Positions 1,818-42,680 of a stretch of DNA of 64,000 nt are shown in pieces (position 1 is the first letter of the stretch; each line of letters begins with the position of its first letter). The notes under the pieces are model-generated. The model searched no databases. It was not told the origin of the DNA and saw only the letters and a list, made by a program, of their open reading frames with translations. Where the stretch lies: the IMG/VR virus record IMGVR_UViG_3300025084_000015, one strand, 5' to 3'. A program made the translations under genes and the position numbers. This stretch comes from an uncultured virus (IMG/VR IMGVR_UViG_3300025084_000015) (lineage: Duplodnaviria > Heunggongvirae > Uroviricota > Caudoviricetes).

Positions 1818-1945
1818 ATGGTAGTTTCTTGCTTTATTCTAGTAATATTCTACCATAAAAAATGACTACTGTACATACTTTTTTTACAAAAAATGCACTT
1901 TTTTTAATCTGTAATACAGATTTTGGTGTTCATTTGAACAATTAA
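1818..1945 (-). promoter_or_regulatory. Repeated early-promoter cassette (-35 TGTACA 1875..1870, 17 bp, -10 TAGAAT 1852..1847; A-tract UP element; two palindromes)
   Basis: Same architecture recurs at >=10 sites; palindromes AATCTGTAATACAGATT (1906..1922) and TGTTC-ATTT-GAACA (1927..1940). Confidence 0.8.
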
Positions 1946-1948
1946 CCT

Positions 1949-2098
1949 CTAAAAAGGTTTATGCTCCTTAATATACTTAGTGCACGTTTTAGTACCTTTT
2001 TCGTCGTATTCAAACCACCATTCTTCGGTATATCCAAATCTTCGGACAATTCTGTATGTGATGCGACCTAAGTCGTCTAAGTGAAAATTTTCAAACAT
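1949..2098 (-). CDS. Small hypothetical protein (49 aa)
   Basis: Read manually: MFENFHLDDLGRITYRIVRRFGYTEEWWFEYDEKGTKTCTKYIKEHKPF. Confidence 0.5.
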   Translation of the reverse strand: MFENFHLDDLGRITYRIVRRFGYTEEWWFEYDEKGTKTCTKYIKEHKPF

Positions 2099-2101
2099 AA
2101 T

Positions 2102-2260
2102 TTACCAGTGTCTAATTGTATTTGCGATGATAAAACCGCATGTTGTAATATGCACAAACCACCAAAAGGTTCTAATAAGAGCAGCGATGTCGGCTTCTCG
2201 TGAATCTGCACTCACCTTTTCTCCCATAGTTTTACACCATATTCTCCATAATTTATTCAT
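2102..2260 (-). CDS. Small membrane protein of a type common in marine T4-like phages (52 aa)
   Basis: Read manually: MNKLWRIWCKTMGEKVSADSREADIAALIRTFWWFVHITTCGFIIANTIRHW. Confidence 0.65.
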   Translation of the reverse strand: MNKLWRIWCKTMGEKVSADSREADIAALIRTFWWFVHITTCGFIIANTIRHW

Positions 2261-2472
2261 TAATCAAGTTGTTTCTCAATAACAGTATGCACCTCTCGTC
2301 TAATTAAAACTGTCGGATCGTTGTAAAAATTGCTGTCGTGAATTCTTTTTGCGTTATACTTCCAATATACTAAAGCTTCTTCTGCGTGACTAAACTCTGG
2401 TGTGTTTGCAACAGGTTCACACGAAAAACCTCGATCTCTTGCTATTTTGTAAAATTGTTTGTAGCTTTTCAT
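2260..2472 (-). CDS. Hypothetical protein
   Basis: 70-aa ORF, tightly packed; begins MKSYKQF. Confidence 0.55.
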   Translation of the reverse strand: MKSYKQFYKIARDRGFSCEPVANTPEFSHAEEALVYWKYNAKRIHDSNFYNDPTVLIRREVHTVIEKQLD

Positions 2473-2473
2473 T

Positions 2474-3712
2474 TTAGAACTCGAGCTTAATAGCTCTTGA
2501 AGTACCAGCTAAGCCGAGGTATACACTCTTGTTTTTGACTAGTGCTGCTGTAGAATATCCGGTTCCAAGACTCATGATTCCTGATCCTGCTTTGACTGTT
2601 GGGTGTCCATCCATAAATTCGTATTCGTAATCTTTCCACTGAATTTCATTGGTGTGCGGATTAATCCTAAAGCATTTGGTGTCAGCCCAGAAAGCGCTGT
2701 AAACCCAACCATCAGGCCCTAAAAATCCGTGAAAGTTTTTATTCTTGTTTGCCACCTTCAAATAATCTGCTGGAAGGTCAACTTCTTCGTATGTGTCGTC
2801 AACACAATTAATGATTAAGATTTTTTTACCACATCTTGGTAAACAGAATACTTTATCAACGGCTTCAACATAAATTGCTCCGACATATTTGTGGGTCCAT
2901 CCGGAAACTCCAGAAGTAGCAGGAGGACCTTCAAGGTATTTAAAAACACCATTCTTATCAATCTTAGCAACACTAGAACCTAGAACTTGAGGCATGTAAA
3001 TCTCTCCTTTTTTATCTGTAGCTGCTCCCCAAATATGGTTGCAACCACCAATTCCACTTCGTTTAGGTTTTTCGGGAGTAAATGATGTAGTCTCTCCAGT
3101 CTTAGTATCGTAGGTGTATATTTTAAGAGTTCTAGTATAGGATGGCATATAAATGACACCGTTCTTTCCTTCAGCTCCAGATCTAACTTGAGGTGTTGAA
3201 GGAAATTTGTTTTCGAGAGTAAGTTTGCCAGTTTGTCTTTCTAATTTGCCGATAGAAGTTGAGTAAGCAGGCATGAAATATGTAATTCCGTTAGACGCGT
3301 CTACTGTACCAATGAAGCCTTTATGGCCTGGCATCTCGCGTGATATGCTCCCTAAAAGCGTATCAGTTTTAATGTGCATGTCAGACTTATAACCAAGTGA
3401 GTGAATGACGTTAAAGTCATCTAACGCCATTGTCCGAGTTTTCGTCAGATTTCCTACGATCTCCCCTGAGAGATATTTGAAGCTTGGCCATGATTTGGTT
3501 AAGCCACGAGAAAAAAAACCCTGGGTAGGTTTGGGACATGGCCATGTCCCTCTTTGCTTGGTAGGTTTGGATTCAGCACTAGATTCAGCACTGCTGTATT
3601 CTGCACTAGAAACTTCTTCTGCTTTTGGAATAGCGGTTTTCAGCCCTTCTAATTCTTTGATGGAATCTTGAAGATTTTCGATTATTTTGCTGATCTTATC
3701 TGTCGCTTTCAT
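2474..3712 (-). CDS. Probable beta-propeller protein, late-expressed
   Basis: Repeated GxxxxxNGxIYxMP-type blades (GTVDASNGITYFMP, GAEGKNGVIYMP, GAATDKKGEIYMP, GFLGPDGWVYSAF); TATAAATA at 3726..3719. Confidence 0.6.
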   Translation of the reverse strand: MKATDKISKIIENLQDSIKELEGLKTAIPKAEEVSSAEYSSAESSAESKPTKQRGTWPCPKPTQGFFSRGLTKSWPSFKYLSGEIVGNLTKTRTMALDDFNVIHSLGYKSDMHIKTDTLLGSISREMPGHKGFIGTVDASNGITYFMPAYSTSIGKLERQTGKLTLENKFPSTPQVRSGAEGKNGVIYMPSYTRTLKIYTYDTKTGETTSFTPEKPKRSGIGGCNHIWGAATDKKGEIYMPQVLGSSVAKIDKNGVFKYLEGPPATSGVSGWTHKYVGAIYVEAVDKVFCLPRCGKKILIINCVDDTYEEVDLPADYLKVANKNKNFHGFLGPDGWVYSAFWADTKCFRINPHTNEIQWKDYEYEFMDGHPTVKAGSGIMSLGTGYSTAALVKNKSVYLGLAGTSRAIKLEF

Positions 3713-3734
3713 ATAATTTATTTATACATTTAAA

Positions 3735-3810
3735 TGGTGCGCCCGGCTGGACTCGAACCAGCGACCAAGGGTTTATGAGACCCCTGCTCTAACCACTGAG
3801 CTACAAGCGC
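3735..3810 (-). tRNA. tRNA with CAT anticodon, probably tRNA-Ile2 (lysidine) rather than Met
   Basis: Full cloverleaf GCGCTTG...CGGGCGC A CCA, loop CTCATAA; body resembles bacterial Ile2 tRNAs. Confidence 0.85.
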
Positions 3811-3816
3811 ATTTTA

Positions 3817-3999: not shown

Positions 4000-4085
4000 T
4001 GGTAGCTCGGGCGGGGATCGAACCCGCACGATCTAGGATCAATGGATTTTAAATCCACAGCGTCTACCAATTCCGCCACCGAGCC
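4000..4085 (-). tRNA. tRNA-Leu(TAA)
   Basis: Cloverleaf with long variable arm, loop TTTAAAA, T arm GCGGG TTCGATC CCCGC, 3' ACCA. Confidence 0.9.
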
Positions 4086-6539: not shown

Positions 6540-6983
6540 TTAAAGGTAAGTTCCCATAAGGCTGAGCTCGTCATTGACGTCGTCTTCAGTATATGGAACT
6601 TCTCCCCATACTCGATTGTTGTAGTTTTTTTCCTCGTGGATTGCAGCTGCAACCTCAAACATTCCAGACTCGTCAACCAATTCAGTTGGAGTCATCGCCA
6701 AAATTTCTTCCTTGAGAGAAGGTTTTTTGACAGCCTTTTTTGTACTAGGCTTGGCCTTTTTACCTTTGTTGAGGATTTTGTCGGCGAGTTCCAACATCTT
6801 ATCAACGCTGTATGTTCCTCGCTCATTTCCTCGAGCAATAGGCTTAATGAGTGGATAGGTATCATTTTCGATGAGATTGTTGCTAGTAGCAAGAGCAACA
6901 ACCGTTTTTCGTGGAATATCTCCATTGAAGGTTGAAATGAGGTTGCGGAGGAGTTGGATGTTCTTTTTGCCGTTTCTTTTCAT
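6540..6983 (-). CDS. Hypothetical early protein (basic N-half, acidic C-half)
   Basis: First ORF after a repeated promoter. Confidence 0.65.
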   Translation of the reverse strand: MKRNGKKNIQLLRNLISTFNGDIPRKTVVALATSNNLIENDTYPLIKPIARGNERGTYSVDKMLELADKILNKGKKAKPSTKKAVKKPSLKEEILAMTPTELVDESGMFEVAAAIHEEKNYNNRVWGEVPYTEDDVNDELSLMGTYL

Positions 6984-7101
6984 AGTTTCTTGTTTGATTC
7001 TGATTATATTCTAACCTATTTTCTGCGGATTGTAAATACTTTTTTTACTAAAAATGTGCTTTTTTTTGGTGTTCAGATGAATACTGGTGTTCAACTGAAC
7101 A
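6984..7101 (-). promoter_or_regulatory. Repeated early promoter cassette with tandem TGTTC-N4-GAAYA boxes
   Basis: TTTACA 7036..7031, TAGAAT 7013..7008; boxes at 7070..7083 and 7088..7101. Confidence 0.8.
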
Positions 7102-7213: not shown

Positions 7214-7297
7214 GACTATATTCTAAGCTATTTTCTGCGGATTGTAAATACTTTTTTTACTAATAATTGCACTTTTTTTCAATCTGTATTACAGATT
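7214..7297 (-). promoter_or_regulatory. Repeated early promoter cassette with AATCTGTAATACAGATT palindrome
   Basis: TTTACA 7248..7243, TAGAAT 7225..7220; palindrome 7281..7297. Confidence 0.75.
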
Positions 7298-7591
7298 ACG
7301 GCTTTTTCCTTTAAATTCCTTTAAATCTATGGATATGCCGTCAGAAGACTCTTCAGCTAGAGCAAATTGGTCCTTTTCTGTATCAAACTGCGGTTTCTCA
7401 AAGCTCTGAAAAAGGCTAACATAATCAGTCCATTGGCTCCAAGTGTAGCTCTGTCCTTTAATATAGTACCATTCGTCTTCGTCAATTTTTAGAGCAGGAC
7501 CACTCAAATTGTGTTTGACACCATTTTTTGTGTACAGGCTATAATTGTTACCCTTTTGAACCCTGTAAATGTCCTTTTCTTTTTTGATCAT
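7289..7591 (-). CDS. Hypothetical protein with one HxxxGPA-type repeat
   Basis: KNGVKHNLSGPALKIDEDEWYYIKG. Confidence 0.6.
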   Translation of the reverse strand: MIKKEKDIYRVQKGNNYSLYTKNGVKHNLSGPALKIDEDEWYYIKGQSYTWSQWTDYVSLFQSFEKPQFDTEKDQFALAEESSDGISIDLKEFKGKSRNL

Positions 7592-7672
7592 GACTATATT
7601 CTAACCTATTTTTTGCGGTTTGTAAATACTTTTTTTACTAATAATTGCACTTTTTTGGTGTTCAAATGAACA
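7592..7672 (-). promoter_or_regulatory. Repeated early promoter cassette with TGTTC-AAAT-GAACA box
   Basis: TTTACA 7626..7621, TAGAAT 7603..7598; box 7659..7672. Confidence 0.8.
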
Positions 7673-7676
7673 TACT

Positions 7677-7703
7677 AAAAAAGCCCTGCTTTCGCAGAGC
7701 TTT
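7677..7703 (-). terminator. Probable intrinsic terminator after the porin gene
   Basis: Minus-strand AAAGCTCTGC GAAA GCAGGGCTTTTTT: GNRA-capped hairpin plus U-tract. Confidence 0.7.
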
Positions 7704-7727
7704 GATAGATTTAGTTACTTTTTTTGA

Positions 7728-8450
7728 TTAGAATGTGTATTTAACACCAGCTTGAACAACAGCATCAAAGCCGTCAGTTTGCAGTTGGTTATCTACATAA
7801 GCTACTTCTCCGAACACCTGTCCTCCGCCTGGAAGACCGTATACTGCGGAAATAGCACCTTGCACCCATTCGTAATCTTCAGCGTATTGCCAAGTTTTAC
7901 CAACTTCGACTGATCCGTTAACAAAGACTCCAAATGCTGAAAAAAGTTCGCGGGATGCGCTCAATGATAAATCAAATGCTCCTCCGGAAATATAGTTCAC
8001 TTCAGTTGATACGATAACATCAAAGAATTTTGGATCATACGCATATCCAACGTTTAAGTTGAAATCGGTATCTCCTGCGATATCACCGTCAGCTGCATTA
8101 GTTCCAAGATTCAATCCAACATAAAGATTGTCTCCTGCGATTCCAACATATCCTGTAAATAGATCATCATTTTCACCTTTAATAAATTCAACGCCTCCAA
8201 CGATTGGGGTGTCATAAGCTGAACCAATAACTCCACTTCCTCCAGCGCTAAAAGCGTCAGTGTGTGTGAACAATCCTCGATCAATTCTCTTTTCTTTAAA
8301 ACTCGCTTCTCCTGCGATATCAACAGGTTGCAATGGATGAAGATCCCAACCAAGAACAGGAACTTTATAGCTAGCGTTTGCTAATCCACAAAGACTAATA
8401 ATAGTTCCTGTAATAAGGGCGATGACACTTAGTGTTTTTTTGTTTTTCAT
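7728..8450 (-). CDS. Outer-membrane beta-barrel (porin-like) protein
   Basis: Signal peptide (MKNKK-hydrophobic-ANA), alternating amphipathic strands, C-terminal BamA signal GVKYTF. Confidence 0.75.
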   Translation of the reverse strand: MKNKKTLSVIALITGTIISLCGLANASYKVPVLGWDLHPLQPVDIAGEASFKEKRIDRGLFTHTDAFSAGGSGVIGSAYDTPIVGGVEFIKGENDDLFTGYVGIAGDNLYVGLNLGTNAADGDIAGDTDFNLNVGYAYDPKFFDVIVSTEVNYISGGAFDLSLSASRELFSAFGVFVNGSVEVGKTWQYAEDYEWVQGAISAVYGLPGGGQVFGEVAYVDNQLQTDGFDAVVQAGVKYTF

Positions 8451-9630: not shown

Positions 9631-9667
9631 GTGTTTATTATACTGTATTTTTAGAGGTTTGTAAATA

Positions 9668-10510
9668 CTATTTTTCGTATATTTTCTTTAAATGATTCCA
9701 AGCTTCTCCAGATCTGAGTTCGTCTGGATGCCATTGCGCATAAGCAATATCGTTGCACCACTGTGTTCTATCATATTGCTTTGGGCTATTTATGTTTGTA
9801 AAATCATGATCTGAAATATTCCACACCATTGAACCTTTATCAATGGAGATAACTGGTTTTCCAGCTAATGCAGAATCAACTCCAGCATTACTATTGATAG
9901 TAACAACACATTTTGCTCCACTAATTGCAGTTTGAATAGGCAACTTGAAATCAGCGTATTTAACATCGTTTACTCCTTCTATTTTTTGTTGTGTGTTTGG
10001 TCTTGTTGGGTGATCCCTAATTAAAATCGGCAAATCTGTGTGTTTTCTAATTGACTCACATATGCTTTGATAATTGACGTCCCAATCGAGATATTTTAGA
10101 GATTGATCTCCGTTAATCTGGAGAGGAATAAGAATATAATCGCCGTCAGTGTACTCCTTTAATCTACCATCGTTAAAGTGTTTTTTCCACCTATCATCTG
10201 GAGAATTTTTGTTACAAAAATTAGCTCTGCCATTAAGGCCATTCCAACCGGCTGAAACCCATTCTTTTGCTTTTCCTTGAACATTGTTGAGATAAGAATT
10301 TTCGAATATAATAAAATTTTTAATTTTAGCATATTTTTTAACTTTTTCCATTTGCGCTACACCCCAACAAATACAAATATCGTACGATCCATTTGGCAAA
10401 GATGAAGGATTGAAATTATGAATTTCGTGTTTTTCTTTATCAAATCCAAGAAGAAAATTGCCAATAGCTTTATGCTGGTGTGACAATACTGCATTAACTA
10501 AAACTCTCAT
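9668..10510 (-). CDS. Capsule-synthesis (KpsS/KpsC-like) GT-B glycosyltransferase-like protein
   Basis: YILIPLQINGDQS, ILIRDHP, VVTINSNAGVDSALAGKPVI, AYAQW. Confidence 0.7.
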   Translation of the reverse strand: MRVLVNAVLSHQHKAIGNFLLGFDKEKHEIHNFNPSSLPNGSYDICICWGVAQMEKVKKYAKIKNFIIFENSYLNNVQGKAKEWVSAGWNGLNGRANFCNKNSPDDRWKKHFNDGRLKEYTDGDYILIPLQINGDQSLKYLDWDVNYQSICESIRKHTDLPILIRDHPTRPNTQQKIEGVNDVKYADFKLPIQTAISGAKCVVTINSNAGVDSALAGKPVISIDKGSMVWNISDHDFTNINSPKQYDRTQWCNDIAYAQWHPDELRSGEAWNHLKKIYEK

Positions 10511-11139
10511 GATCTTTTTTTATATCCTAAAAGCTCGTAATCTCTAGCATACCGCTTTTCAACAAGAGCTCTTGTTTCTTTACTTATCTCTAAATCTACA
10601 CTTTCTGTCTTATTTTTATGAAATGTCATTTTAGGGTAATTCTTCCCGCAATGGTTTTTTATCAGCAGAAGCGACTTTTCCCAATCATCATAAAATGATT
10701 CCATCCTTATAAGATAATCAATTCTTTCAACATCTAAGTCAAAATGTTGAGAGCGGATATGCTGCTCACAATCAGTGCCATCTTCGATATTTAAGATTTC
10801 TTCAACAAAATCTGAAAATGGCATTTTCCTATAAAAATTATATTCTTTGTGTCGGAATCCTGGATGAAATCTATTGAAAATTTTATCTTTCCAGCAGCTT
10901 ATTAAGCGATCTTCTGGATGTCTGCACGTGCCAAAAACTAAATAATCATCAGTGAATGTATCTTTTTTACAGTATTTGACGTAAGGTAGTAAGGCTGTTT
11001 TTGTATGTATATTTTTAATTATTCTATCTTTGCAGAAGTGTGTTTTTAATACTTCTTTAATAGAAGTGTTTCCAGCTTTACATACAAACATAAAGCCAAT
11101 TTTGTCTTCTTCTATTTTTATGATATTTGGATCAGGCAC
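10507..11139 (-). CDS. Sulfotransferase family 2 protein (copy 1)
   Basis: 5'-PSB motif KAGNTSI, 3'-PB motif RHPEDRLISCW, HIRSQ, YARDYELLGY. Confidence 0.85.
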   Translation of the reverse strand: MPDPNIIKIEEDKIGFMFVCKAGNTSIKEVLKTHFCKDRIIKNIHTKTALLPYVKYCKKDTFTDDYLVFGTCRHPEDRLISCWKDKIFNRFHPGFRHKEYNFYRKMPFSDFVEEILNIEDGTDCEQHIRSQHFDLDVERIDYLIRMESFYDDWEKSLLLIKNHCGKNYPKMTFHKNKTESVDLEISKETRALVEKRYARDYELLGYKKRS

Positions 11140-11779
11140 GGCTTTTATAGTTTAAAATTCTATAATCTTTTGCGTATATTTTTTCAATTAAAGATCTTGT
11201 TTTTTTGCTTATTTTTGGTTTAGATAAACCAGTGTTTCGATCATGAAATATCATTTCTGGATATATTTCACCGCAGTGTTTTTTTATCATTTCCCGAGCA
11301 TTTTCCCAATCGCTAATAAAATTTTCAACCCTGATTAGATAGGAAATGCGCGTTAAGTCTAAATCATGCCATTGCGGTCTAATATGTTGATCCCATATTT
11401 TAGATCTGTATTTAATCAAAGAAATTTCTTTGACAAATTCAGCAAATGGCATATCTTTGTAAAATTTCCGAGAAGATTTGTATAAACCTTCGTGTAGTTT
11501 AAATCCATTGCGAACTTTATCTTTCCAACAACTAATTAGTCTATCTTCAGGATGACGGCAGGTGCCAAAGATAAGATAGTCGGGTGGTATACTTATTCTA
11601 TTAGTAAATTCCACATCTTCATGAAAAGGTTCTGACCATGATAAAACAACGTCTTTTCCATTTCCTTTTCCTAAAAGCTTTTCTGCAATCACTCTTTTTA
11701 CAGAAGAATTGCCGGCCTTATTCACAAACATAAACGCAATTTTATGTTTTTCAATTTTTAATATGTTTGGGTCAGGCAC
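11132..11779 (-). CDS. Sulfotransferase family 2 protein (copy 2, tandem paralog)
   Basis: KAGNSSV, RHPEDRLISCWKDK, HIRPQ, YAKDYRILNY. Confidence 0.85.
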   Translation of the reverse strand: MPDPNILKIEKHKIAFMFVNKAGNSSVKRVIAEKLLGKGNGKDVVLSWSEPFHEDVEFTNRISIPPDYLIFGTCRHPEDRLISCWKDKVRNGFKLHEGLYKSSRKFYKDMPFAEFVKEISLIKYRSKIWDQHIRPQWHDLDLTRISYLIRVENFISDWENAREMIKKHCGEIYPEMIFHDRNTGLSKPKISKKTRSLIEKIYAKDYRILNYKSRA

Positions 11780-11782
11780 AAA

Positions 11783-12025
11783 TTATCCTTTCGAAAAGTT
11801 TTTAACTGAACTCCGAGGACCATTAGGAATAAAATATTTTTTATTTTCGTCCCATGATTCATTCGACATAATTTCGATTTCTCCGCCAGTTTTATGGCTA
11901 TAAACCATACGCCCTTTTATCTTCGGCTGATCATGATCAGGAAGAGAAAAGGCGCAGGACTTACACAGCTTTAAATTGAGCTCACGCCTGGCCTTTTCAA
12001 TAGGACTACCACATCCACAAATCAT
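11783..12025 (-). CDS. DksA/TraR-like C4 zinc-finger protein
   Basis: CGCGSPIEKARRELNLKLCKSCA. Confidence 0.55.
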   Translation of the reverse strand: MICGCGSPIEKARRELNLKLCKSCAFSLPDHDQPKIKGRMVYSHKTGGEIEIMSNESWDENKKYFIPNGPRSSVKNFSKG

Positions 12026-12166
12026 TTATTTTCCTCTACTTCTTTGATTACACCACCAATTCGCTTTGCGCAAAATTTTGCATCTTCTTTATAGAGATAC
12101 GATTGGTGATATCTACCGTCTTTATCGAAAACACGATAACGCACTAATTCTGTTTTTTTCATAATT

Positions 12167-12364
12167 TTAAAAATTAAATTTGTCTTGGTTTTTTTCGTTT
12201 TCTTCAGCAAAAATATTAGCTCTCAGGTGCACTAAATCATTAATAAGATTATCAAGATTGTTGACTGATCCTGAATCGTCTTTGCCTGGAGGAATATGGT
12301 TATGCACCAATTCCAAAATTTCAGCAGTAATTTGTAGTGATTTTTTATATTCCTCAACTGTCAT
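12167..12364 (-). CDS. Hypothetical protein, paralog of 1605..1817; probably leaderless
   Basis: Sequence similarity to 1605..1817; TAGAAT(12376..12371)-6nt-ATG. Confidence 0.6.
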   Translation of the reverse strand: MTVEEYKKSLQITAEILELVHNHIPPGKDDSGSVNNLDNLINDLVHLRANIFAEENEKNQDKFNF

Positions 12365-12406
12365 GCTATTATTCTAACCTATTTTCTGTGAATTGTAAAT
12401 ACTTTT

Positions 12407-31848: not shown

Positions 31849-32295
31849 TTAAATCTCTGAAGAAACCCATTGGATGTACAATCCTTTTTCACGGCCGTGG
31901 GCTTCAATCTCCCATGGATGATCATAATAGTTTAACTTTGAAAGATTGATATCTTTCCCCTGCCATTTGCAAACTGCGTCTGTAGCAGAAAAATCTTTAA
32001 GCTCTCCTCTGGCATACTGTTTTACGTGAACCATTTCGTGAGCAACAGTTTCCATCATATCATCACGATCTTGTGTAGAATCAACACGTATTATAAACTC
32101 TCTAGGACGATTACACGAATCATCATTCCATATACAATCTCCAGCAAGGCCTTCCTTTTCTGTAAGATTAGCAATTAGTGTTACATCAATTGCTAATTTG
32201 TCTTTAAGTCTCGGCATAAGCTTGTCTACACAAAACTCGATTAGAGATTTTACTTCGGCCCTTTTATTTTTTCCGGATCCAGATACTTTAACCAT
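31849..32295 (-). CDS. Zn-metallopeptidase-like (HExxH) protein
   Basis: TVAHEMVHVKQY, YYDHPWEIEA. Confidence 0.8.
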   Translation of the reverse strand: MVKVSGSGKNKRAEVKSLIEFCVDKLMPRLKDKLAIDVTLIANLTEKEGLAGDCIWNDDSCNRPREFIIRVDSTQDRDDMMETVAHEMVHVKQYARGELKDFSATDAVCKWQGKDINLSKLNYYDHPWEIEAHGREKGLYIQWVSSEI

Positions 32296-32299: not shown

Positions 32300-32384
32300 A
32301 TCTAGATAGATTCTACCATAAAAACTAGCCATTGTACATATTTTTTTTCTAGAAAATACACCTATTTTGGTGTTCAAATGAACA
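32300..32384 (-). promoter_or_regulatory. Repeated early promoter cassette with TGTTC-AAAT-GAACA box
   Basis: TGTACA 32338..32333, TAGAAT 32315..32310; box 32371..32384. Confidence 0.8.
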
Positions 32385-32388: not shown

Positions 32389-33756
32389 CTATATTTTAAA
32401 GGCTGAAAAGTCGCTATTTCCGCAAGGTGCTGCAGATGTTGTAATTTCATCACTAGATAAAGTTTGAGCTGAATCTTCAACATCGTATAGTCTCATTTTA
32501 GATCGATCAATACCAACAACAAATCTTTTGTTCTGTGTTGGGTCGTTATATCGATTTTTAAGTTGCTTTACCATAAGTTGATTCATACCTTCCAGCTGTT
32601 CGGTGGAAATAAGGGCAAGCATTAAATCAGCGGTTGCAGGAAGACCAAAGGATTCAGAAGTATCTGTCAACTCAACATCAGTATTACCAAAACCTGAACG
32701 AGTAACTTGAGTAGCTGACCAGATTGGAACATCGTGCTCAACAGCTAAACCTCTGAGTTCTTCAGCAATTGCTTTAATAAGCGAGTACGTATTAACAGAG
32801 CCACCCAACCCTTTAATGCGCGATGATCCCATAATGTTAAGATAATCGACATAAACTATATCAGGCTTAAAGTTTTTCTTAAGCCTTAGCTCATCAAACA
32901 AAGCTCTAAAATGGCCGACATGCGCTGTAGCTGTAGGATATTCTTTTACGATAAGTTTGCCTCTAGACTTCTCCTTGAGTTTGTCAACTTTGGTATCAAA
33001 AAGTTGTTGAGGCAACGTCTCAAGTTGATCAATCGGGACATCAAGTAAATTAGCATCGATTCGCTCAGCAATCCTTTCTTCTGCCATTTCGAGAGTAACG
33101 TATAATACGTTGAGTCCAGCGGCGAGATTGGCACTAGCGAAGTGACACATCGCCAAACTTTTTCCCACACCCGTACCTGCCAATATGATGTTAAGAGTTT
33201 TATTCGAAACACCACCTTTTGTAATGGTGTTAAGGAGCGATATGTCAAACGGTATTTTATCTTCTTGAGCATGATAGAAATCGTATCGTTGGGTTGAATT
33301 TTCAAAATAGTCGTGGCCGACATTTGTATCAAAAGACACTTGGAGTGCCTTGGATAATATTCCGGGGATTGCACCATCTGTTAGTTGTGTTTCCTTTCCA
33401 TCGATGATGCTTATAGATTTGATGATAGCAAGATAGACTGCTCTATTCTTGCACCATTCCTCGGTAGAGTTCAGTAGCCATTCTCTGTCAATCTTCTCAT
33501 GATTACACAAATCAAGAATTAAATTATGAATCTCATTCTTGTTTGACTTATTTATAAAATCAGACTTTTGAAACTCAACATCCAGTGCAGATGATGTTGG
33601 TAATTTGTTGTAATTACCTAAAAATTGGAGTATTAGTTCATACACAGGCCGATACTCGTTTTCAAAGTATTCAGGCTTGAGGTGTGGTAGTGTCTGACGA
33701 CAAAATTCTTCATCGTTCGTCAGATTCTTGAGTATCAGCTTCTGTAGATTCGTCAT
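32389..33756 (-). CDS. 41: Replicative DNA helicase gp41
   Basis: AGTGVGKS, TLEMAEERIAERIDAN, VDYLNI, SATQVTR, SESFGLPATAD. Confidence 0.97.
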   Translation of the reverse strand: MTNLQKLILKNLTNDEEFCRQTLPHLKPEYFENEYRPVYELILQFLGNYNKLPTSSALDVEFQKSDFINKSNKNEIHNLILDLCNHEKIDREWLLNSTEEWCKNRAVYLAIIKSISIIDGKETQLTDGAIPGILSKALQVSFDTNVGHDYFENSTQRYDFYHAQEDKIPFDISLLNTITKGGVSNKTLNIILAGTGVGKSLAMCHFASANLAAGLNVLYVTLEMAEERIAERIDANLLDVPIDQLETLPQQLFDTKVDKLKEKSRGKLIVKEYPTATAHVGHFRALFDELRLKKNFKPDIVYVDYLNIMGSSRIKGLGGSVNTYSLIKAIAEELRGLAVEHDVPIWSATQVTRSGFGNTDVELTDTSESFGLPATADLMLALISTEQLEGMNQLMVKQLKNRYNDPTQNKRFVVGIDRSKMRLYDVEDSAQTLSSDEITTSAAPCGNSDFSAFKI

Positions 33757-35125: not shown

Positions 35126-36322
35126 CTAAATGAAAGATTCAATGGTTTGAACATTTTCCTCAAATTCTATTGTTTGTTTTTTATTATCAGCGATAGCAAA
35201 ATCTGCTTCACGACTATTTAATTTTCCATTGAGCCAATCTTTAATACCTAACGCCATGTCTGTAGCTGTAGTAACAGGAACATTTTGACAAATCATATTA
35301 AGATTTCTTTTTCCTCCTTGAAGTTGAAACTCTTTTGGCATTTTCATAATCGCTAAACACTCACGAATAGTAAGATATCTATCTTTATGTGGGTGTGTAA
35401 GACATGTTGGCATATGACCAACGAAAGCACCAATGTAATCCTTAGGTATTTCGGTTAATTTGCGCATAACGTTTCCTCCAGCTTTTAGCTTTTTATGAAC
35501 CTGCAAGCATCTTTCTGCTTTTTTAGGATAACCATTGTCTTCCATCCAAACCGCAACTTTATCATATTCTATACCATGTTTTTCTATATAATCCATAGGA
35601 TTAATAGTTTTTTCAATCTTATCAAAAAATTGTCTATGAGTAATACCGCCTTCAATTTCTTCTAAAACATATTTGTAAAAAGGATTTTCTGTTGGTTTAC
35701 CAGTGTTTGTCAACTTATTCATAGGATCATCATCAGACACAAATGAATTTATAATAGTATCTTCAATTCTTTCGTGTGGACGATGATAAAAAGGCATATA
35801 TGGAATTCTTTTTCCTTTCCAGAAAAAGTAAAAAGATCTGTCCCTAGTTTGGCTTAGGCCGTGAAGTTTTGATTTTGTTTTATATAAGAGAAGAGTATAA
35901 CCATTTTCTTTTGCTACATCTCTTAATTTTTTTACGATAGGACCACCCATTTTTGAAGCAAGACGAGGAGCGTTTTCTCCCCAAAAAACTTTAGGTTTAA
36001 CTTTACCTAAAACGTATTTTGCAGATTCAACCATCCAATCGTTTGCTTTATTATCTATAGAAGCTGATGGACTAAGTGAAGATAACCCAGCACATGGACA
36101 TACAGCGTTTACTACATCCACATAACTTTTCTTTTCATCACCTTGATCAATTAAATAATATGGAACTTCATTATTATAATGATTTAAAAGTTGTGAGTCG
36201 TTGTCTTGAAAAGGCGAATACGATAAAATATACTCAGGTCTTTTTTCAAAGGCGTTTTCCATTGCGATTGTTTCACCACCTATAAGTGGAACGCACGAAG
36301 CGTAATTATATTTGTTTTTCAT
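35126..36322 (-). CDS. DNA cytosine-C5 methyltransferase-like protein with atypical motif I
   Basis: CPCAGLS (motif IV), GENAP (VI), QTRDR (VIII), RYLTIRECLAIM (IX), QNVPV (X); motif I reads PLIGG. Confidence 0.75.
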   Translation of the reverse strand: MKNKYNYASCVPLIGGETIAMENAFEKRPEYILSYSPFQDNDSQLLNHYNNEVPYYLIDQGDEKKSYVDVVNAVCPCAGLSSLSPSASIDNKANDWMVESAKYVLGKVKPKVFWGENAPRLASKMGGPIVKKLRDVAKENGYTLLLYKTKSKLHGLSQTRDRSFYFFWKGKRIPYMPFYHRPHERIEDTIINSFVSDDDPMNKLTNTGKPTENPFYKYVLEEIEGGITHRQFFDKIEKTINPMDYIEKHGIEYDKVAVWMEDNGYPKKAERCLQVHKKLKAGGNVMRKLTEIPKDYIGAFVGHMPTCLTHPHKDRYLTIRECLAIMKMPKEFQLQGGKRNLNMICQNVPVTTATDMALGIKDWLNGKLNSREADFAIADNKKQTIEFEENVQTIESFI

Positions 36323-36323
36323 T

Positions 36324-37559
36324 TTATGCAAAAAATTCTTCGATGTTTATAATACGATTAGTTTCTTTATTTGTTTTTTTCACTTTATTAAAGAAATCAT
36401 TAAACGATGAATCAGGCGAATTATGAGAATAATAGTACTCATATGCTTTATGTCTCCATTCATCACGCATTACAGAATCTTTTCTTAATTGATTAATTAA
36501 CTCCATATTTTGTGCGTGATCTGAGCCAACTTCTCCTAGCCAAATTGTTCCATTATCGTTATCAGCAGTCATTGCATTACCAGTTTGCAAATGATAGCAA
36601 TGATCGCCATAAGACTTTCTAAATATTGGAATGCATCCAGCCGCAACAATTTCTAAGTGAGTAAATTCAATAAAATTTTGAATGTATTCAGGCTGAAGAT
36701 ATGTTAGCTGAAAACCAAAGGCGCATTTAGATAATCTTTCAAGCATTTCAGTGTATTTGTATGCTGAAAACACATATGGCTTAGTGTCGTATTCTAAATT
36801 AAAACCAAAGTCGCTGTCTGGATGATGAAAATCGTATTTTTTGCGTATATCTACAAACTGAATTGATCGTTCCATTCCTTCTAACGTAAAAAGAAAACCT
36901 TGGTTTTTTGCGTTGTTTTCATATAAATCAAAAAGAACATCAAATCCTTTCCAATACGCACTACGGCCGATCCATTTTAAATGATTTTCATCTTGCTCTT
37001 CAATTGATTTCCAATACTCATTTTTAATTGTTGAAATGTCAATCCCATTACAAAAATTGTGTAGCGCTGCGTTTGTTCCAACAGTTCTGCAATAATTCAT
37101 AAAAGGACTCTTTGTAGAATAAGAGAATATAACATCAGCCTTTTTAATTGTTTCGTCGAGGACTGCATTCCTACGGATTGACATCATTTTATGATCATGT
37201 TGAATCATAACAACTTTAGTATCAATACTGCTAATAAGCTTACTAAAGTTTTCAATACAATCATCTGGATGCCCTTTCGATGGTAGCGAACCGATAATTA
37301 CCATATCAGCATCTTTTGCATCTTCAATGATATTATCAACGCCGCAAACACTATCACCTCTAGAAGGTTTATTGCCAAATTTTTGTTCAATTACGTTTTC
37401 TCCTAAAATGTGGGATTTAGCCCGAGTCCAACGCTTATCTTTAGTTGCATAAATTTTATAATCCCATCCCTTAGATAAGGCCCAATTTTTTATTTCTAAT
37501 GTAAATCGTGTTACACCGCAACCTTCAATCCCTCTGCCTAATATATGTATTATTTTCAT
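36324..37559 (-). CDS. agt: DNA alpha-glucosyltransferase homolog (T4 Agt-like)
   Basis: GRGIEGCGVT, KDKRWTRAKSH, QHDH, WIGRSAYWKG, EFTHLEIVAAGCIPIF match T4 Agt motifs. Confidence 0.85.
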   Translation of the reverse strand: MKIIHILGRGIEGCGVTRFTLEIKNWALSKGWDYKIYATKDKRWTRAKSHILGENVIEQKFGNKPSRGDSVCGVDNIIEDAKDADMVIIGSLPSKGHPDDCIENFSKLISSIDTKVVMIQHDHKMMSIRRNAVLDETIKKADVIFSYSTKSPFMNYCRTVGTNAALHNFCNGIDISTIKNEYWKSIEEQDENHLKWIGRSAYWKGFDVLFDLYENNAKNQGFLFTLEGMERSIQFVDIRKKYDFHHPDSDFGFNLEYDTKPYVFSAYKYTEMLERLSKCAFGFQLTYLQPEYIQNFIEFTHLEIVAAGCIPIFRKSYGDHCYHLQTGNAMTADNDNGTIWLGEVGSDHAQNMELINQLRKDSVMRDEWRHKAYEYYYSHNSPDSSFNDFFNKVKKTNKETNRIINIEEFFA

Positions 37560-37563
37560 AAAA

Positions 37564-37917
37564 TTATTTATGACCTGTAGGTTTTTTGCGGTTTAGAAAA
37601 TCGCGGTCAGGCGATTGACCTTCAATACCATGCCGCATGTATGCAACCATGAATGAAGAATAATTAATCAAATCTTTTGCAGAGTCTTCCAAAGATTCAA
37701 AGTTTTGGGTATATTCTGTGTCGTATTCCATTGCCTCAAGAACGGATTGCATACGAAGAACTTTTGCGTGGACAATATCAAGAATTGACACAATTCCACG
37801 AGGATAATAATCTGTCTGTTTTATACGTGAGTTAGGATTTTGGTAGTCATTAGACTTTTTTATCTGTAAATCTGCGCACTCTTCTAAAACCTTAATCGAT
37901 TCTTTTTTACTTTCCAT
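37564..37917 (-). CDS. Nucleotide-modification-associated all-alpha protein (DUF1599/Nmad-like)
   Basis: KKSNDY...EDSAKDLINYS; leaderless promoter at 37952..37924. Confidence 0.65.
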   Translation of the reverse strand: MESKKESIKVLEECADLQIKKSNDYQNPNSRIKQTDYYPRGIVSILDIVHAKVLRMQSVLEAMEYDTEYTQNFESLEDSAKDLINYSSFMVAYMRHGIEGQSPDRDFLNRKKPTGHK

Positions 37918-37939
37918 GCTGTTATTATATTATATTTTA

Positions 37940-38365
37940 TCAATTTTGTAAAACAAATTGTTTCTTATTTTTATTCCAATAGTAAATGCCGTGGAGGCTA
38001 TAGTCTGCAGTCACCTTGTCTCCGATAAAAATATATAGAATATCCGGGTATTCTCTCCACGCGTCTTGACGAGCACGGTTGGCTCTCTTTAAAACATACG
38101 GAACGTAATAGTCACCTTCAGTTACTTTTACTTCTACAAAACTATTCTCCGCATCAATAACGTCTTTATATTTTCTAGTATCATCAGTAAATCCCATTTC
38201 TTTTATAAGAAATACTTCAGGAGCATGGCCGTACAAAGTTGTTTCTAAAATTTGGTTGAATGACCTTTTTAAACGGGTACTTGTCTTTGAAAAGATTTCG
38301 GCCGCCTCTGCCTTAGCTCGAGCGAGATAAAAATCGCTATCTAGTTGAGATGCGTTAAACTTCAT
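37940..38365 (-). CDS. Hypothetical protein, possible PD-(D/E)XK nuclease fold
   Basis: GHAPE...KDVID...VEVK. Confidence 0.5.
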   Translation of the reverse strand: MKFNASQLDSDFYLARAKAEAAEIFSKTSTRLKRSFNQILETTLYGHAPEVFLIKEMGFTDDTRKYKDVIDAENSFVEVKVTEGDYYVPYVLKRANRARQDAWREYPDILYIFIGDKVTADYSLHGIYYWNKNKKQFVLQN

Positions 38366-39093
38366 GAGTCACCCATCGATGATTGAGCAAGAGATTGAAC
38401 TTCATCAGCCTTTTTTCTTGCTTCGATTTCCTTATCAATAAACTTGAAATGGCGTTCGTATACGTGTAAAGATCCTACTTGCCAAGTAATGTCACCGGCT
38501 GAATAAGTATTTTCACCAAAATCATTTAGATCTTTTACTAGACGATCAAGGACAAACTTTTGCCAGGCATAATCATTTCTGTAACCAAACACAACATCAT
38601 TTGATCGCATTTGAACAACAGCATGAAGAGCGTTGTCACGGACCATATATTGTACAGCGTTAGTGCAAATGAAATCAGACATACCATCAACACTAAAATC
38701 GTCATGCATAGTAGGTCTTTGGTAAATCATAACAGCTCTTCGTGAATTTGGATCACATAAGAGTTGCTGGCATACGTGGTTGTATTGCTTATGGTTTTCT
38801 TTACTAAAGATCAGCTGACCGTAATTAGAATTAATCTTGCCTTTTGTCGATGATATCTGTTTCCATATTTCAGGCGTTTTTTCAGGAATGTCATACACAT
38901 AAAGACTTTCGCTAAGATACCAATCAATTTCTCTTTTGATATACTCATTATTAGGAGTACCGAATATTGATACTTCATCAGCAGTAAAAGATGCACCAAC
39001 AATTTCAAGTGTTTTTACACCTGTTTTATCGGTAACGTATTTTTCTGTGTTATATAGATCAATAAACAGATCGCGGATATCCTTAGTTTGCAT
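38362..39093 (-). CDS. 42: dCMP hydroxymethylase (T4 gp42-like)
   Basis: REIDWY, INSNYG, SRRA, DFICTN, MRSNDVVFGYRNDYAWQ (Asp in the dCMP-specificity position), SLHVYERH. Confidence 0.9.
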   Translation of the reverse strand: MQTKDIRDLFIDLYNTEKYVTDKTGVKTLEIVGASFTADEVSIFGTPNNEYIKREIDWYLSESLYVYDIPEKTPEIWKQISSTKGKINSNYGQLIFSKENHKQYNHVCQQLLCDPNSRRAVMIYQRPTMHDDFSVDGMSDFICTNAVQYMVRDNALHAVVQMRSNDVVFGYRNDYAWQKFVLDRLVKDLNDFGENTYSAGDITWQVGSLHVYERHFKFIDKEIEARKKADEVQSLAQSSMGDS

Positions 39094-39135
39094 AACTATA
39101 TTCTACACTATTACGCGGTATTTGTAAATAACAAA

Positions 39136-41058: not shown

Positions 41059-41268
41059 TTAAAGCCAAGATTGGCATCGGTTCTCATCGTGTTCTTTTAA
41101 GGCCTTCTTAAGTTTATCTCTGACGACCACGTCATCGCGGGAATCCATATATCCAAGGAGCCAACAAAGCTCGTCTCTTAATAGTTGAGCGGCATTACGT
41201 TCCTCTAAGAATTTATCGTAATCTGTTTTTTCTTTAGTTATTGTGGCAAGTGGTTTTTCAGTTTTCAT
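41059..41268 (-). CDS. Hypothetical early protein
   Basis: Follows promoter TTTACA 41325..41320 / TAGAAT 41302..41297. Confidence 0.6.
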   Translation of the reverse strand: MKTEKPLATITKEKTDYDKFLEERNAAQLLRDELCWLLGYMDSRDDVVVRDKLKKALKEHDENRCQSWL

Positions 41269-41333
41269 TGTGGTAGTCTTTTTTGATTCTGAATATATTC
41301 TACCATAAAAAATGGCAGTTGTAAATACTTTTT

Positions 41334-41543
41334 TTACATAAAGTTTGCTTTTTTATTATCATACGATCCATATTTCTCAATAAAGTTTGTAGTGTCTACT
41401 GGGCAATATTTTTCACGTAACCTCATCATGACTTTCCAAATAGGAAGTGCTATAGAATCGTCCGGTTCACTTTCGATCTCGCGGATGAGATCTTGGATTA
41501 CTTCCTCGACAATAGCCGATTTGATTTGATTTGATTTTTTCAT
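41334..41543 (-). CDS. Hypothetical protein
   Basis: 69-aa ORF. Confidence 0.55.
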   Translation of the reverse strand: MKKSNQIKSAIVEEVIQDLIREIESEPDDSIALPIWKVMMRLREKYCPVDTTNFIEKYGSYDNKKANFM

Positions 41544-41627
41544 AATATATTTTTTTTACTCCCACCTAGCCTCCCCCTTTCAGGTTGTAGGCGTGAAGTC
41601 TTTGACGCCTCGTTAATTGCTAGGAGC

Positions 41628-41751
41628 AGGCCCGGGCAGGATTCGAACCTGCATTCCCTCTATAGACGCTAGCTAGCGCGCATCACAGTAAAGTGCACTT
41701 TACTGATTTGGGTATAATATAGATGGGTCTTACCTGTTAAATGACCGGGCC
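41628..41751 (-). ncRNA. tRNA-like RNA A (124 nt) with expanded anticodon arm
   Basis: Acceptor GGCCCGG/CCGGGCC, D loop with GG, T arm GCAGG TTCGAAT CCTGC; 53-nt insert in place of anticodon loop. Confidence 0.7.
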
Positions 41752-41870
41752 GTATTTTGTTTTGTGTTTTCCTAAAGTTGAGGGTCTTTCTCTGAGGGCA
41801 CCCTTACTCCCACAATAGTTCATTATTTTACGTCTTATTCTATCGCTTAACCGTGTTTATACTCACTTGA

Positions 41871-42077
41871 CTAATCTGTTATAATGCTTTTAACTTGGCT
41901 AATATGGTAACCGTTTATTGATCCCATGAATTCAAGTTGAAACCATCCATTCGCATCCAACCGCTTGATAACACCTTCTGCGGAAAGGGATTCATCAATA
42001 GGATCAAATGGTTTGAGCGAGACGAAAACATGCTCACCTGAATCAATGTAGTTTCTAATCATTTTTTCTTTTAACAT
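41871..42077 (-). CDS. Hypothetical protein
   Basis: 68-aa ORF. Confidence 0.55.
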   Translation of the reverse strand: MLKEKMIRNYIDSGEHVFVSLKPFDPIDESLSAEGVIKRLDANGWFQLEFMGSINGYHISQVKSIITD

Positions 42078-42313
42078 AATAAAATTTATTTTAGAGCTCG
42101 ATAAAGTTACTCAAATCAATGGTGTGAACAATTGAAGACTCAGCTTTACGACGCATAAGATCTACATCAACTTTAAAATTCTCAGATGCCTCTTTGACAA
42201 GCATGTGTAGCTCCTCCCGCGGGGGTGGGGAGTTCAGGAGGTGGTTTTTAATCCAAGTTAGTCCGTTCTCTAGTTTTTTGTTTTCTTTCATGATGTAATA
42301 TAGTTGAGTTCCT

Positions 42314-42553
42314 TTAGCTGTAGAGTTTAGCGAGATCATTTGGGACAACATCCTTACCTCTGTAAATAGCTTGCTTAAGTTTAGTCTGATGCTTCCATAA
42401 GCTATCAAGCTGATCATTAAGATCAGCACAACCGCTACAAGCTCTATCACTATCTAATGCTTCAAGAACCTTAAGCTTATCAGTAAAGCAGTTCATAAGC
42501 TCATCCATATGCTCCAACACTTGCTTCTTCTGCTCGTTATTATTTTCTTTCAT
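42314..42553 (-). CDS. Hypothetical early protein (CxxC)
   Basis: First ORF after promoter cassette at 42560..42680. Confidence 0.55.
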   Translation of the reverse strand: MKENNNEQKKQVLEHMDELMNCFTDKLKVLEALDSDRACSGCADLNDQLDSLWKHQTKLKQAIYRGKDVVPNDLAKLYS

Positions 42554-42559
42554 AACTAA

Positions 42560-42680
42560 TATACTTTCTTCCTTGATTCTGATTATATTCTACCACACGA
42601 TGGGTAGTTTGTAAATACTTTTTTTACTAAAAATAGGCTTTTTTTGGTGTTCATCTGATTACTGGTGTTCATCTGATTAC
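42560..42680 (-). promoter_or_regulatory. Repeated early promoter cassette with 18-bp tandem repeat of degenerate TGTTC-N4-GAACA box
   Basis: TTTACA 42615..42610, TAGAAT 42592..42587; TGTTC-ATCT-GATTA at 42648..42661 and 42666..42679. Confidence 0.75.

Follow-up and report, generated by a model that had tools for sequence, protein, structure and literature searches.

In a 64,000-nucleotide stretch of DNA from an uncultured tailed phage (IMG/VR record IMGVR_UViG_3300025084_000015; Caudoviricetes), hereafter called the window, the palindrome TGTTC-N4-GAACA and degenerate forms of it lie at fixed distances upstream of five early promoters. This element is most likely an upstream operator in early-promoter cassettes of the promoter-early stem-loop (PeSL) type, with the sequence of the LexA operator of Verrucomicrobiota. 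We put at roughly 55% the probability that the boxes are a protein-binding control site that modulates early promoters from upstream of a tract resembling an UP element. Judging by sequence, coupling to LexA and a verrucomicrobial host are plausible; binding at these sites, the identity of the binder and the direction of its effect are what we infer. An initial annotation of the stretch, made from its letters, had drawn attention to the palindromes. Beyond it, the boxes turned out to be asymmetric, strand-fixed modules of repeated PeSL-type cassettes, and a second palindrome was found to share their slot. Both PeSL cassettes and LexA operators on mobile elements are already known, and the present element is a variant of these kinds; a literature search returned no description of the TGTTC-N4-GAACA palindrome on promoters of T4-like or other lytic phages.

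Sequence, number and orientation of the boxes

The perfect form of the palindrome, TGTTCNNNNGAACA, occurs four times in the window against 0.10 expected, and 0 of 100 dinucleotide-preserving shuffles reached four copies. Allowing one mismatch yielded five matches against 2.72 expected, which is not significant taken alone, the only gain being the copy at 7070-7083. The extended pattern TRWTCANNTGAACACC recovered exactly seven boxes and no other site, with 0.00 expected. Read on the minus strand, every copy (7/7) has the form T(G/A)(T/A)TCA-NN-TGAACACC, and the seven occurrences of TGAACACCA in the window (0.35 expected) are the seven boxes, all of them on the minus strand. Once the full extent of the element is recognised, the three degenerate copies thus become significant, and since the extended minus-strand pattern is common to all seven, the element is asymmetric, longer than 14 bp and fixed in orientation. 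No variation is seen in the half nearer the promoter; the distal half has degenerated to TATTCA or TAATCA. The four perfect palindromes of the initial annotation are therefore borne out by the counts, its three degenerate copies are present at the positions given in Table 1, and its two tandem pairs (7068-7101 and 42646-42679) each have the 18-bp period that it had described.

As an RNA hairpin the box would have a 5-bp stem of -3.6 to -3.7 kcal/mol followed by CCAAAA, with no T run, whereas the terminator at 7677-7703 folds at -17.6 kcal/mol, against -3.6 for the box that adjoins it. A terminator or hairpin reading of the box was rejected because of the weak computed folding energy and the absent T run; with a separate terminator directly upstream of the box at 7657-7672, the box itself is not the terminator. 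The degenerate copies cannot form the stem and yet keep TGAACACCA exactly. Conservation of the centre as a terminator-like stem, which the initial annotation had named among the findings that would refute its LexA reading, was not seen: the centre varies and the hairpin is weak.

Promoter cassettes and the two slots

All long open reading frames (ORFs) of the window lie on the minus strand, so the promoters read leftward. A search with the regular expression TTTACA/TGTACA-N16-18-TANAAT returned 25 promoter-like sites on the minus strand versus 2 on the plus strand. Several of these promoters stand inside near-identical cassettes of 60-90 nt, and the same cassettes occur in relatives. The box-bearing cassettes comprise five T4-type sigma-70 promoters with the boxes upstream of an A-rich tract. 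On the sense strand the upstream gene ends first, in one case with a strong terminator (7677-7703); then come one or two boxes, about 32 nt of A-rich sequence, the -35 hexamer, a 17-bp spacer, the -10 hexamer and the leader. The proximal part of the A-rich tract is GTAAAAAAAGTA, which we take to resemble an UP-element subsite. Leaders are conserved and without obvious Shine-Dalgarno sequence, or else the ATG stands exactly 6 nt past the -10 hexamer.

If +1 is placed 7 nt past the -10 hexamer, the boxes fall into two slots: a proximal one centred at -74.5/-75.5 in four cassettes, and a distal one, 18 bp further upstream, at -92.5/-93.5 in three. Between the end of the box and the -35 hexamer lie 32-33 nt in four cassettes (7598, 7008, 32310 and 42587), in agreement with the approximately 33 bp claimed for four cassettes at the outset, and 50-51 nt in the case of the distal copies and the 1927 box. 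The fixed slots at -74.5 and -92.5 also uphold the early argument that so remote a site speaks against simple occlusion of RNA polymerase. Downstream of the boxes are small phage ORFs, an endolysin and a protein with an HExxH motif; placement on the core promoters of SOS genes was not found.

A second palindrome, (A)ATCTGTA-N-TACAGAT(T), is present at three sites in the window against 0.00 expected, each time in the upstream slot that boxes use elsewhere, and in two of the three cassettes it stands alone. At the site matching 42899-42913, the relative G128 has a TGTTC box beside it. The second palindrome is kept upstream of promoters even in two contigs (L460, L462) whose homologue of the 147-aa early protein described below is 40-43% identical, so that its age and spread exceed those of the TGTTC box; it could serve as a second operator.

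The ATG lies exactly 6 nt past the -10 hexamer at six promoters (7220-7248, 7598-7626, 9637-9665, 12371-12399, 37924-37952 and 39100-39128). Leaderless mRNAs are predicted there from this spacing, the one from 7598-7626 being probably of that type, and together with the leaders that have no clear Shine-Dalgarno sequence these promoters could be a clue to the translation habits of the host. Behind the promoter at 42838-42866, about 150 nt on the minus strand (42680-42837) hold no convincing ORF; this stretch contains the hairpin CCGAAACCCCAATGGTTCGG, has no Rfam match, and may encode a small RNA or a micro-ORF.

Boxes in related contigs

Relatives were IMG/VR fragments of the same genus-level lineage, recovered by pattern and protein scans. 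At orthologous sites the arms of the box are unchanged and the centre dinucleotide varies freely: TT, AT, GA, AA or AG at the helicase site, where one further copy reads TGTTCACTCGAACA, and GT, CC or GC at the 7088 site. Fixed arms around a free centre fit a dimeric protein site. Indels and swaps between close relatives leave the box module present, absent or replaced at orthologous promoters. In G130 the box of the 1927 site lies in the proximal slot and the second palindrome is missing, so that 18-bp units have been inserted or lost, and some box-less versions of the helicase site carry the palindrome TTTTCGGCCGAAAA instead. A scan of IMG/VR with the extended box returned no new site of the lineage outside regions homologous to the window.

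The palindrome in bacterial genomes

TGTTC-N4-GAACA is the LexA box that Erill, Campoy, Kilic and Barbe reportedly gave for Verrucomicrobia in 2016 (in Front Mol Biosci). A perfect copy within 50 nt upstream of the LexA domain was found at 9 of 34 Verrucomicrobiota lexA loci (about 0.01 expected by chance), made up of 5/30 from a neighbour set, whose centre genome is one of the five and had been picked for its tandem boxes, and 4/4 from genomes likewise picked for tandem boxes. Among the other loci, nine of the 34 had a one-mismatch copy only and 16 had none. The palindrome being found directly on Verrucomicrobiota lexA promoters, the attribution of the motif to this phylum in the initial annotation stands.

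Scanning 185,579 species genomes for two boxes no more than 12 nt apart gave, among the matches listed, a large share of Verrucomicrobiota, and also Planctomycetota, Acidobacteriota, Acinetobacter and others. In one genome of the Opitutaceae, a gene with LexA_DNA_bind and Peptidase_S24 domains has the tandem boxes immediately before it. Positions 6 and 9 of the host boxes are rich in A/T, and C follows GAACA in 13 of 24 half-sites; the phage boxes have A/T at the same two positions and C in 7/7 copies.

Marine Verrucomicrobiales (L165, L166, L167, L169, L173, L210 and similar) have a conserved tandem pair of boxes with a 6- or 8-nt gap before a major-facilitator transporter gene, not before lexA; the pair possibly marks an unreported member of the SOS regulon, or it may belong to another regulator. 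On one 81,836-bp contig of Acinetobacter lwoffii, which is also listed in IMG/VR (L174, L176, L185, L222, L225), there are many TGTTCA-NN-TGAACA tandems with a 17-bp period. The repeats on this replicon indicate that the palindrome is used by other systems outside the Planctomycetes-Verrucomicrobia-Chlamydiae (PVC) group. Sites of the CRP, Fis, NtcA and ArsR/SmtB types were dropped as candidates on the grounds that their sequence does not fit. The Bacteroidetes SOS motifs GGA-N5-TCC and CTAA-N5-TTAG, as given in PMC8565304, do not fit the box either.

Box arrays in unrelated phages

Two unrelated phage records with box arrays, G412 and G413, were met among the chance matches of the extended pattern. 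G412 (L399-L407) is a complete genome of 179 kb (100%) with terminal repeats and 40% G+C; it is not T4-like and has only ribonucleotide reductase (RNR), PhoH and a few other genes in common with the window. It carries 60 perfect boxes, versus 1 in a reversed-pattern control, all of them within 8.2-41.6 kb (8269-41617), where they sit after a small gene's terminator and before the TTGACA-type promoter of the gene that follows. A box lies within 120 nt upstream of 13 of 50 strict same-strand promoter matches, with a gap of 23-25 nt in 7 of the 13.

Directly behind six boxes, at the downstream end of the box region, G412 encodes a protein of 159 aa (7615-8094, minus strand). Pfam assigns it LexA_DNA_bind only (27.3 bits, cut-off 23.7), with no S24 protease domain, and a hidden Markov model (HMM) of 34 Verrucomicrobiota LexA domains, built with G412 excluded, matches it at E 1.1e-13. 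Its recognition-helix region, SQTSAMNCLKSLEKAG, resembles ASQTAAMSHLRALEKKG of marine Verrucomicrobiales LexA. Used as a query, the protein matched 31 of 201 Verrucomicrobiota genomes (best 45.9 bits, up to 45% identity), 5 of 201 in the phylum of a Phycisphaerales genome (best 29 bits) and 0 of 201 in the phylum of a Jannaschia genome. At least one phage thus pairs an early-promoter palindrome with a LexA-family reader of verrucomicrobial type, and G412 offers a clean system for studying box function. Its box-rich region also holds an SprT-like protein.

G413 (L408-L409) is a fragment of 30.6 kb. Within a repeated module between 4044 and 19369 it has 25 boxes that read CACTGTTCA-NN-TGAACAGTG. 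These boxes also satisfy CTGT-N8-ACAG, the gammaproteobacterial LexA pattern.

Search for a binding protein and a host

The search for a LexA gene covered the window and the relatives G128 and G130, of which G130 runs about 15 kb past the window start and contains gp33, gp59, gp32 and baseplate genes. Annotation of this extension with PHROGs showed no LexA-like gene. The initial annotation had advised looking for a phage-encoded helix-turn-helix regulator, and Pfam found no such family among the 57 unassigned proteins of the window.

A candidate for a phage-encoded binder is the early protein of 147 aa. It has a basic N-terminal domain with elements in the order helix-strand-helix-helix-strand (AlphaFold2 pLDDT, the predicted local distance difference test score, 77-88), a lysine-rich linker and a conserved acidic C-terminal tail, WGEVPYTEDDVNDELSLMGTYL, presumably reminiscent of the tails by which T4 proteins bind the clamp or the single-stranded-DNA-binding protein (SSB). 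From its model, the N-terminal domain may be winged-helix-like. The family, of about 135-155 aa, is common in marine metagenomes (41 matches). Foldseek gave a best E of 0.84, and the best VIA-align Z was 5.8, within noise, the winged-helix repressor Rex being among the weak matches at Z 5.2. Searches of Pfam and of PDB profiles yielded no match, alignment to the LexA domain with hhalign gave a probability of 0.3 and no profile similarity, and a homodimer prediction for residues 1-80 gave no verdict (score 0.00). Homologues of the protein always have a palindrome upstream, and its sequence shifts with protein divergence: TGTTCA-NN-TGAACA at 68-100% identity, CTCATTG-N5-CAATGAG at 60%, and CTGATT-N3-AATCAG at 40-43%, twice in G417. 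Contigs whose homologue is at most 60% identical have 0 perfect TGTTC boxes in 94 kb. This co-variation is inseparable from phylogenetic distance.

With regard to the host, the capsid protein had no match in 401 Verrucomicrobiota genomes, a search that had no positive control, and the large subunit of RNR matched 9 of 201 genomes at 40-43% identity, which is uninformative on the host. No independent host signal came from these two proteins, from the protein atlas, where the neighbours of a Branch glycosyltransferase of the phage are mostly viral clusters, or from the searches for cultured relatives. Marine Verrucomicrobiales genomes with lexA loci of about 40% G+C exist, so a verrucomicrobial host is compositionally possible.

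Comparison with known systems

PeSL cassettes of T4-like phages were reportedly described by Arbiol et al. in 2010. A PeSL has its stem-loop immediately before an AT-rich region, which is followed by a sigma-70-like early promoter (for T4/PST, TTTACW-N17-TAYWAT); each lineage has a stem-loop consensus of its own, the cassettes are linked to gene shuffling, and the stem-loops are called effective terminators (Comeau et al. 2014, PMC4122927). The cassettes of the window share with PeSLs the palindrome upstream of an AT-rich tract, the sigma-70-like promoter, the conserved leader and the repetition, and they too lie mostly between small ORFs of variable regions and are modular in presence or absence between close relatives. 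They differ in the box, which by computation is a 5-bp stem with no T run and separate terminators alongside and so would not act as the terminator of a PeSL; in the invariant arms, the free centre and the sequence of a known repressor operator; and in leaders that are without clear Shine-Dalgarno sequence or are missing.

The LexA boxes of Verrucomicrobia have the same 5+4+5 palindrome as the four perfect copies here. Unlike the phage boxes, they lie no more than about 50 nt from the gene start, overlapping the promoter, and before SOS genes; the phage boxes stand at -74.5/-92.5 of early promoters, strand-fixed, with a CCA extension and in tandems of period 18. Class I CRP sites are one example of an upstream activator combined with an UP element, and Fis site I, at about -71 of rrnB P1, is another. 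They resemble the cassettes in that the centre of a dimer site stands 60-95 bp before a strong promoter that has an A-rich, UP-like tract, but the box has no sequence likeness to CRP or Fis sites.

In the Bacillus thuringiensis phage GIL01, host LexA acts with gp7 to keep phage promoters repressed, and the late promoter is switched on by gp6, a truncated homologue of LexA (PMC6182141). GIL01 is likewise a phage that uses LexA-type operators, and gp6, a protease-less homologue of the LexA N-terminal domain, works on phage promoters as the 159-aa protein of G412 may. GIL01 is temperate, with boxes within or overlapping its promoters, whereas the present phage is T4-like, shows no lysogeny genes and has its boxes far upstream, and a LexA homologue was not found in its available part (window, G128 and G130).

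Interpretation

In the mechanism that we favour, a dimeric, sequence-specific protein with LexA-type specificity (TGTTC-N4-GAACA) would bind an 18-bp unit holding T(G/A)(T/A)TCA-NN-TGAACACCA, just upstream of the docking site of the RNA polymerase alpha subunit. Standing at about -74.5 and -92.5, the binder would raise or lower the firing of this subset of early promoters, and the core promoter would not be occluded.

A number of observations weigh against this mechanism or against LexA as its reader. A symmetric dimer site would not usually have an invariant proximal half and a decaying distal half. Because the seven copies have a common cassette ancestry, duplication and gene conversion could explain position, strand and arms, and gene conversion among cassettes could likewise have kept the arms in relatives. 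Conservation among related contigs, which had been proposed as a check, held for the arms around a free centre and failed for the presence of the box: at the helicase-gene promoter it is found in 6 of 13 relatives with at least 90% identical helicase and missing in 7 of 13 (two more loci that end inside the gene being left out of the 13). Two close contigs of 33.7 and 20.6 kb have no box, and clades with about 60% identical helicase have 0 boxes in 65 loci (399 kb). Neither Pfam on the 57 unassigned ORFs, nor tblastn, nor the HMM on six-frame ORFs found a LexA-like gene in the window, G128 or G130, and a scan of IMG/VR for such a gene in contigs of the lineage found none, only G412 itself being close. 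Nor is a phage LexA homologue the rule, since LexA_DNA_bind (PF01726) has no match in five other box-bearing phage records, of which one is 95% complete. Tandem gaps in Verrucomicrobiota are, among the matches listed, 1, 2, 6 or 8 nt, versus 4 nt (period 18) in the phage. The palindrome alone does not name the host, given the dual fit of the G413 boxes and the arrays in Acinetobacter, Planctomycetota and Acidobacteriota. Of the initial pointer to a verrucomicrobial host, the part that stood is the palindrome on Verrucomicrobiota lexA promoters; what weakens it is the occurrence of arrays in non-verrucomicrobial records too.

As to the reader of the boxes, the LexA of a Verrucomicrobiota or related PVC host is the most likely single one, at well below even odds. 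In a verrucomicrobial host it would sit on the boxes in undamaged cells, and its cleavage in the SOS response would alter five early transcription units. In favour are the exact match to the palindrome of Verrucomicrobiota lexA promoters, including A/T at positions 6 and 9 and the following C; the unrelated G412 with its 60 boxes and Verrucomicrobiota-type LexA domain; and the marine Verrucomicrobiales with lexA loci of about 40% G+C, the phage itself coming from marine metagenomes. Perfect consensus sites would moreover be bound by the resident LexA by default if the host has that LexA, and a tandem-box phage record that is 95% complete and without a LexA-like gene favours a host reader there. 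Against it, independent host evidence is wanting (0 capsid matches in 401 genomes, with no positive control, and RNR only 40-43% identical), sister lineages with nearly identical core genes do without the box, the boxes are not placed as LexA repressor sites are, none of the downstream genes is an SOS gene and the tandem spacing is unlike that of host tandems. A regulator encoded by the phage comes next and is likewise held tentatively; it might, for example, shut off or boost the early-promoter subset as infection proceeds, and would be either the 147-aa protein, acting on its own promoter, or a LexA-like gene in the remaining ~100 kb of the genome. The phage LexA-domain protein directly behind the box array of G412 argues for it, as do the basic N-terminal domain of the 147-aa protein, the presence of winged-helix Rex (Z 5.2) among its weak structural matches, and the change of the upstream palindrome with divergence of the homologues, down to 0 perfect TGTTC boxes in 94 kb at 60% identity or less. 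On the other side, the fold matches of the 147-aa protein are within noise, it has no Pfam, PDB sequence or LexA-profile match, the 57 unassigned proteins of the window yielded no helix-turn-helix family, and the co-variation equals phylogenetic distance, PeSL palindromes varying between lineages anyway (PMC4122927). Some other host factor as the binder seems improbable.

Explanations that dispense with local control by a protein fare less well. The palindrome may be part of a PeSL stem-loop, as a structural or recombination module or a remnant terminator, with no trans-acting protein and a coincidental likeness to LexA sites. The architecture is that of published PeSLs, whose stem-loop consensus varies between lineages (PMC4122927); the modules come and go among close relatives, 18-bp units having been inserted or lost between the window and G130 at the 1927 site; and the slot is also filled by ATCTGTA-N-TACAGAT here and by TTTTCGGCCGAAAA in relatives. 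We nevertheless regard this as unlikely: the 5-bp stem (-3.6 kcal/mol) has no T run and a real terminator next door, the degenerate copies keep TGAACACCA exactly where no stem can fold, the palindrome recurs dozens of times in each of two unrelated phage families, one of which has a LexA domain that looks cognate, and the chance of hitting one given 5+5 palindrome is by our estimate about 1 in 1000 per operator. That the sites are decoys, titrating host LexA and so de-repressing host SOS genes, had been raised in the initial annotation and is very improbable for this phage. A decoy is conceivable for G412, whose 60 sites per genome multiply on replication; the window has just seven promoter-tied sites in 64 kb, four perfect and three degenerate, and close relatives do without them. 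All of these sites being tied to promoters at fixed slots, local control is indicated rather than titration.

Other features of the window

The T4-like nature of the phage, claimed from the start, is borne out by PHROGs, which identified DNA polymerase gp43, the clamp loader gp44/62, the clamp gp45, RegA, gp46/47, gp55 and UvsW/X/Y, further the gp41 helicase, gp61 primase, NrdAB, PhoH, Hsp20 and MazG, and the head genes for portal, protease, scaffold and major head protein (gp20-23). A megablast search with 20 kb against cultured phages gave no match. By capsid protein the closest cultured phages are Pelagibacter phage HTVC008M and Methylophilales phage Melnitz (58-60% identity), and DNA polymerase identity to the closest cultured relatives is at most 48%. 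Among sequencing runs the phage DNA was found in marine metagenomes only, 11 runs containing at least half of its words, and no RNA data set was listed among the runs that hold it.

The 148-aa protein behind the helicase-site box (31849-32295, minus strand) has the HExxH motif HEMVH and a weak match to the DUF6782 metallopeptidase family (E 2.3e-4, below the cut-off); it is kept in all close relatives examined. On the same strand, 9668-13201 encodes two Sulfotransfer_2 proteins, a Capsule_synth-like protein and a Branch (core-2/I-branching) glycosyltransferase, a set of genes unusual in T4-like phages. Proteins resembling a methyltransferase, an alpha-glucosyltransferase and a thymidylate synthase/dCMP hydroxymethylase are encoded at 35126-39093 (minus strand) and cytidyltransferase-like genes at 26033-29454, a set that suggests hypermodified DNA. 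Rfam identified only four tRNAs in the window.

Table 1. Coordinates of boxes, promoters and associated features in the window
Feature	Position	Strand	Remarks
Box, perfect (TGTTCAAATGAACACC)	1925..1940 (palindrome 1927-1940)	-	Distal slot, centre about -93.5, promoter 1847-1875
Box, degenerate left arm (TATTCATCTGAACACC)	7068..7083 (palindrome 7070-7083)	-	Proximal slot, centre -75.5
Box, perfect (TGTTCAGTTGAACACC)	7086..7101 (palindrome 7088-7101)	-	Distal slot, centre -93.5; 18 bp from 7068 box
Box, perfect (TGTTCATTTGAACACC)	7657..7672 (palindrome 7659-7672)	-	Proximal slot, centre -74.5
Box, perfect	32369..32384 (palindrome 32371-32384)	-	Proximal slot of promoter 32310-32338; 4 nt past stop codon of gp41-type helicase
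Box, degenerate (TAATCAGATGAACACC)	42646..42661 (palindrome 42648-42661)	-	Proximal slot, centre -74.5
Box, degenerate, identical to 42646 copy	42664..42679 (palindrome 42666-42679)	-	18 bp upstream, centre -92.5
Second palindrome, ATCTGTA-N-TACAGAT	1907..1921	.	Proximal slot of promoter 1847-1875 cassette
Second palindrome	7282..7296	.	Upstream of promoter 7220-7248, cassette without TGTTC box
Second palindrome (ATCTGTAATACAAAT)	42899..42913	-	Upstream of promoter 42838-42866
Promoter TGTACA-17-TAGAAT	1847..1875	-	Precedes 70-aa ORF 1605-1817 and endolysin 920-1603
Promoter TTTACA-17-TAGAAT, A-rich upstream tract	7008..7036	-	Precedes 147-aa ORF 6540-6983
Promoter TTTACA-17-TAGAAT	7598..7626	-	ATG of ORF 7289-7591 6 nt after -10
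Promoter TGTACA-17-TAGAAT	32310..32338	-	Precedes 148-aa ORF 31849-32295 (HExxH motif)
Promoter TTTACA-17-TAGAAT	42587..42615	-	Precedes 79-aa ORF 42314-42553
Intrinsic terminator of upstream gene (GCTCTGC-GAAA-GCAGGGC + T run)	7677..7703	-	Adjoins box 7657-7672
147-aa early protein, candidate phage-encoded binder	6540..6983	-	Directly behind tandem-box promoter 7008-7036
gp41-type helicase gene	32389-33756	-	Ends 4 nt before box 32369-32384
tRNA genes Met-CAT, Leu-TAA, Asn-GTT, Thr-TGT	3735-3810, 4000-4085, 49834-49908, 49914-49989	-	

Implications for the phage and its lineage

To our knowledge, few phages of Verrucomicrobiota are in culture, and T4-like phages outside the T-even group are, as far as we know, without MotA and AsiA. 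Early-gene timing in that group is poorly known, and an operator at a fixed upstream position would provide a testable handle on it. We offer with considerable doubt the wider proposal that a lytic, T4-like marine lineage infects Verrucomicrobiota or other PVC bacteria and has wired a subset of its early promoters to host LexA through far-upstream operators, and that several unrelated aquatic phage families have done likewise, in places with an uncleavable LexA domain of their own making. If this is true, infection would take a different course in its first minutes in DNA-damaged cells than in healthy ones, and TGTTC-N4-GAACA arrays at early promoters would mark the phages of Verrucomicrobiota. 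Were host LexA to read the site in the present phage, the palindrome would be a host clue, readable from sequence only, to a marine lineage that is abundant, and DNA damage in the host would be sensed by a strictly lytic phage; the elements for which LexA control is described so far, such as GIL01 (PMC6182141), are temperate.

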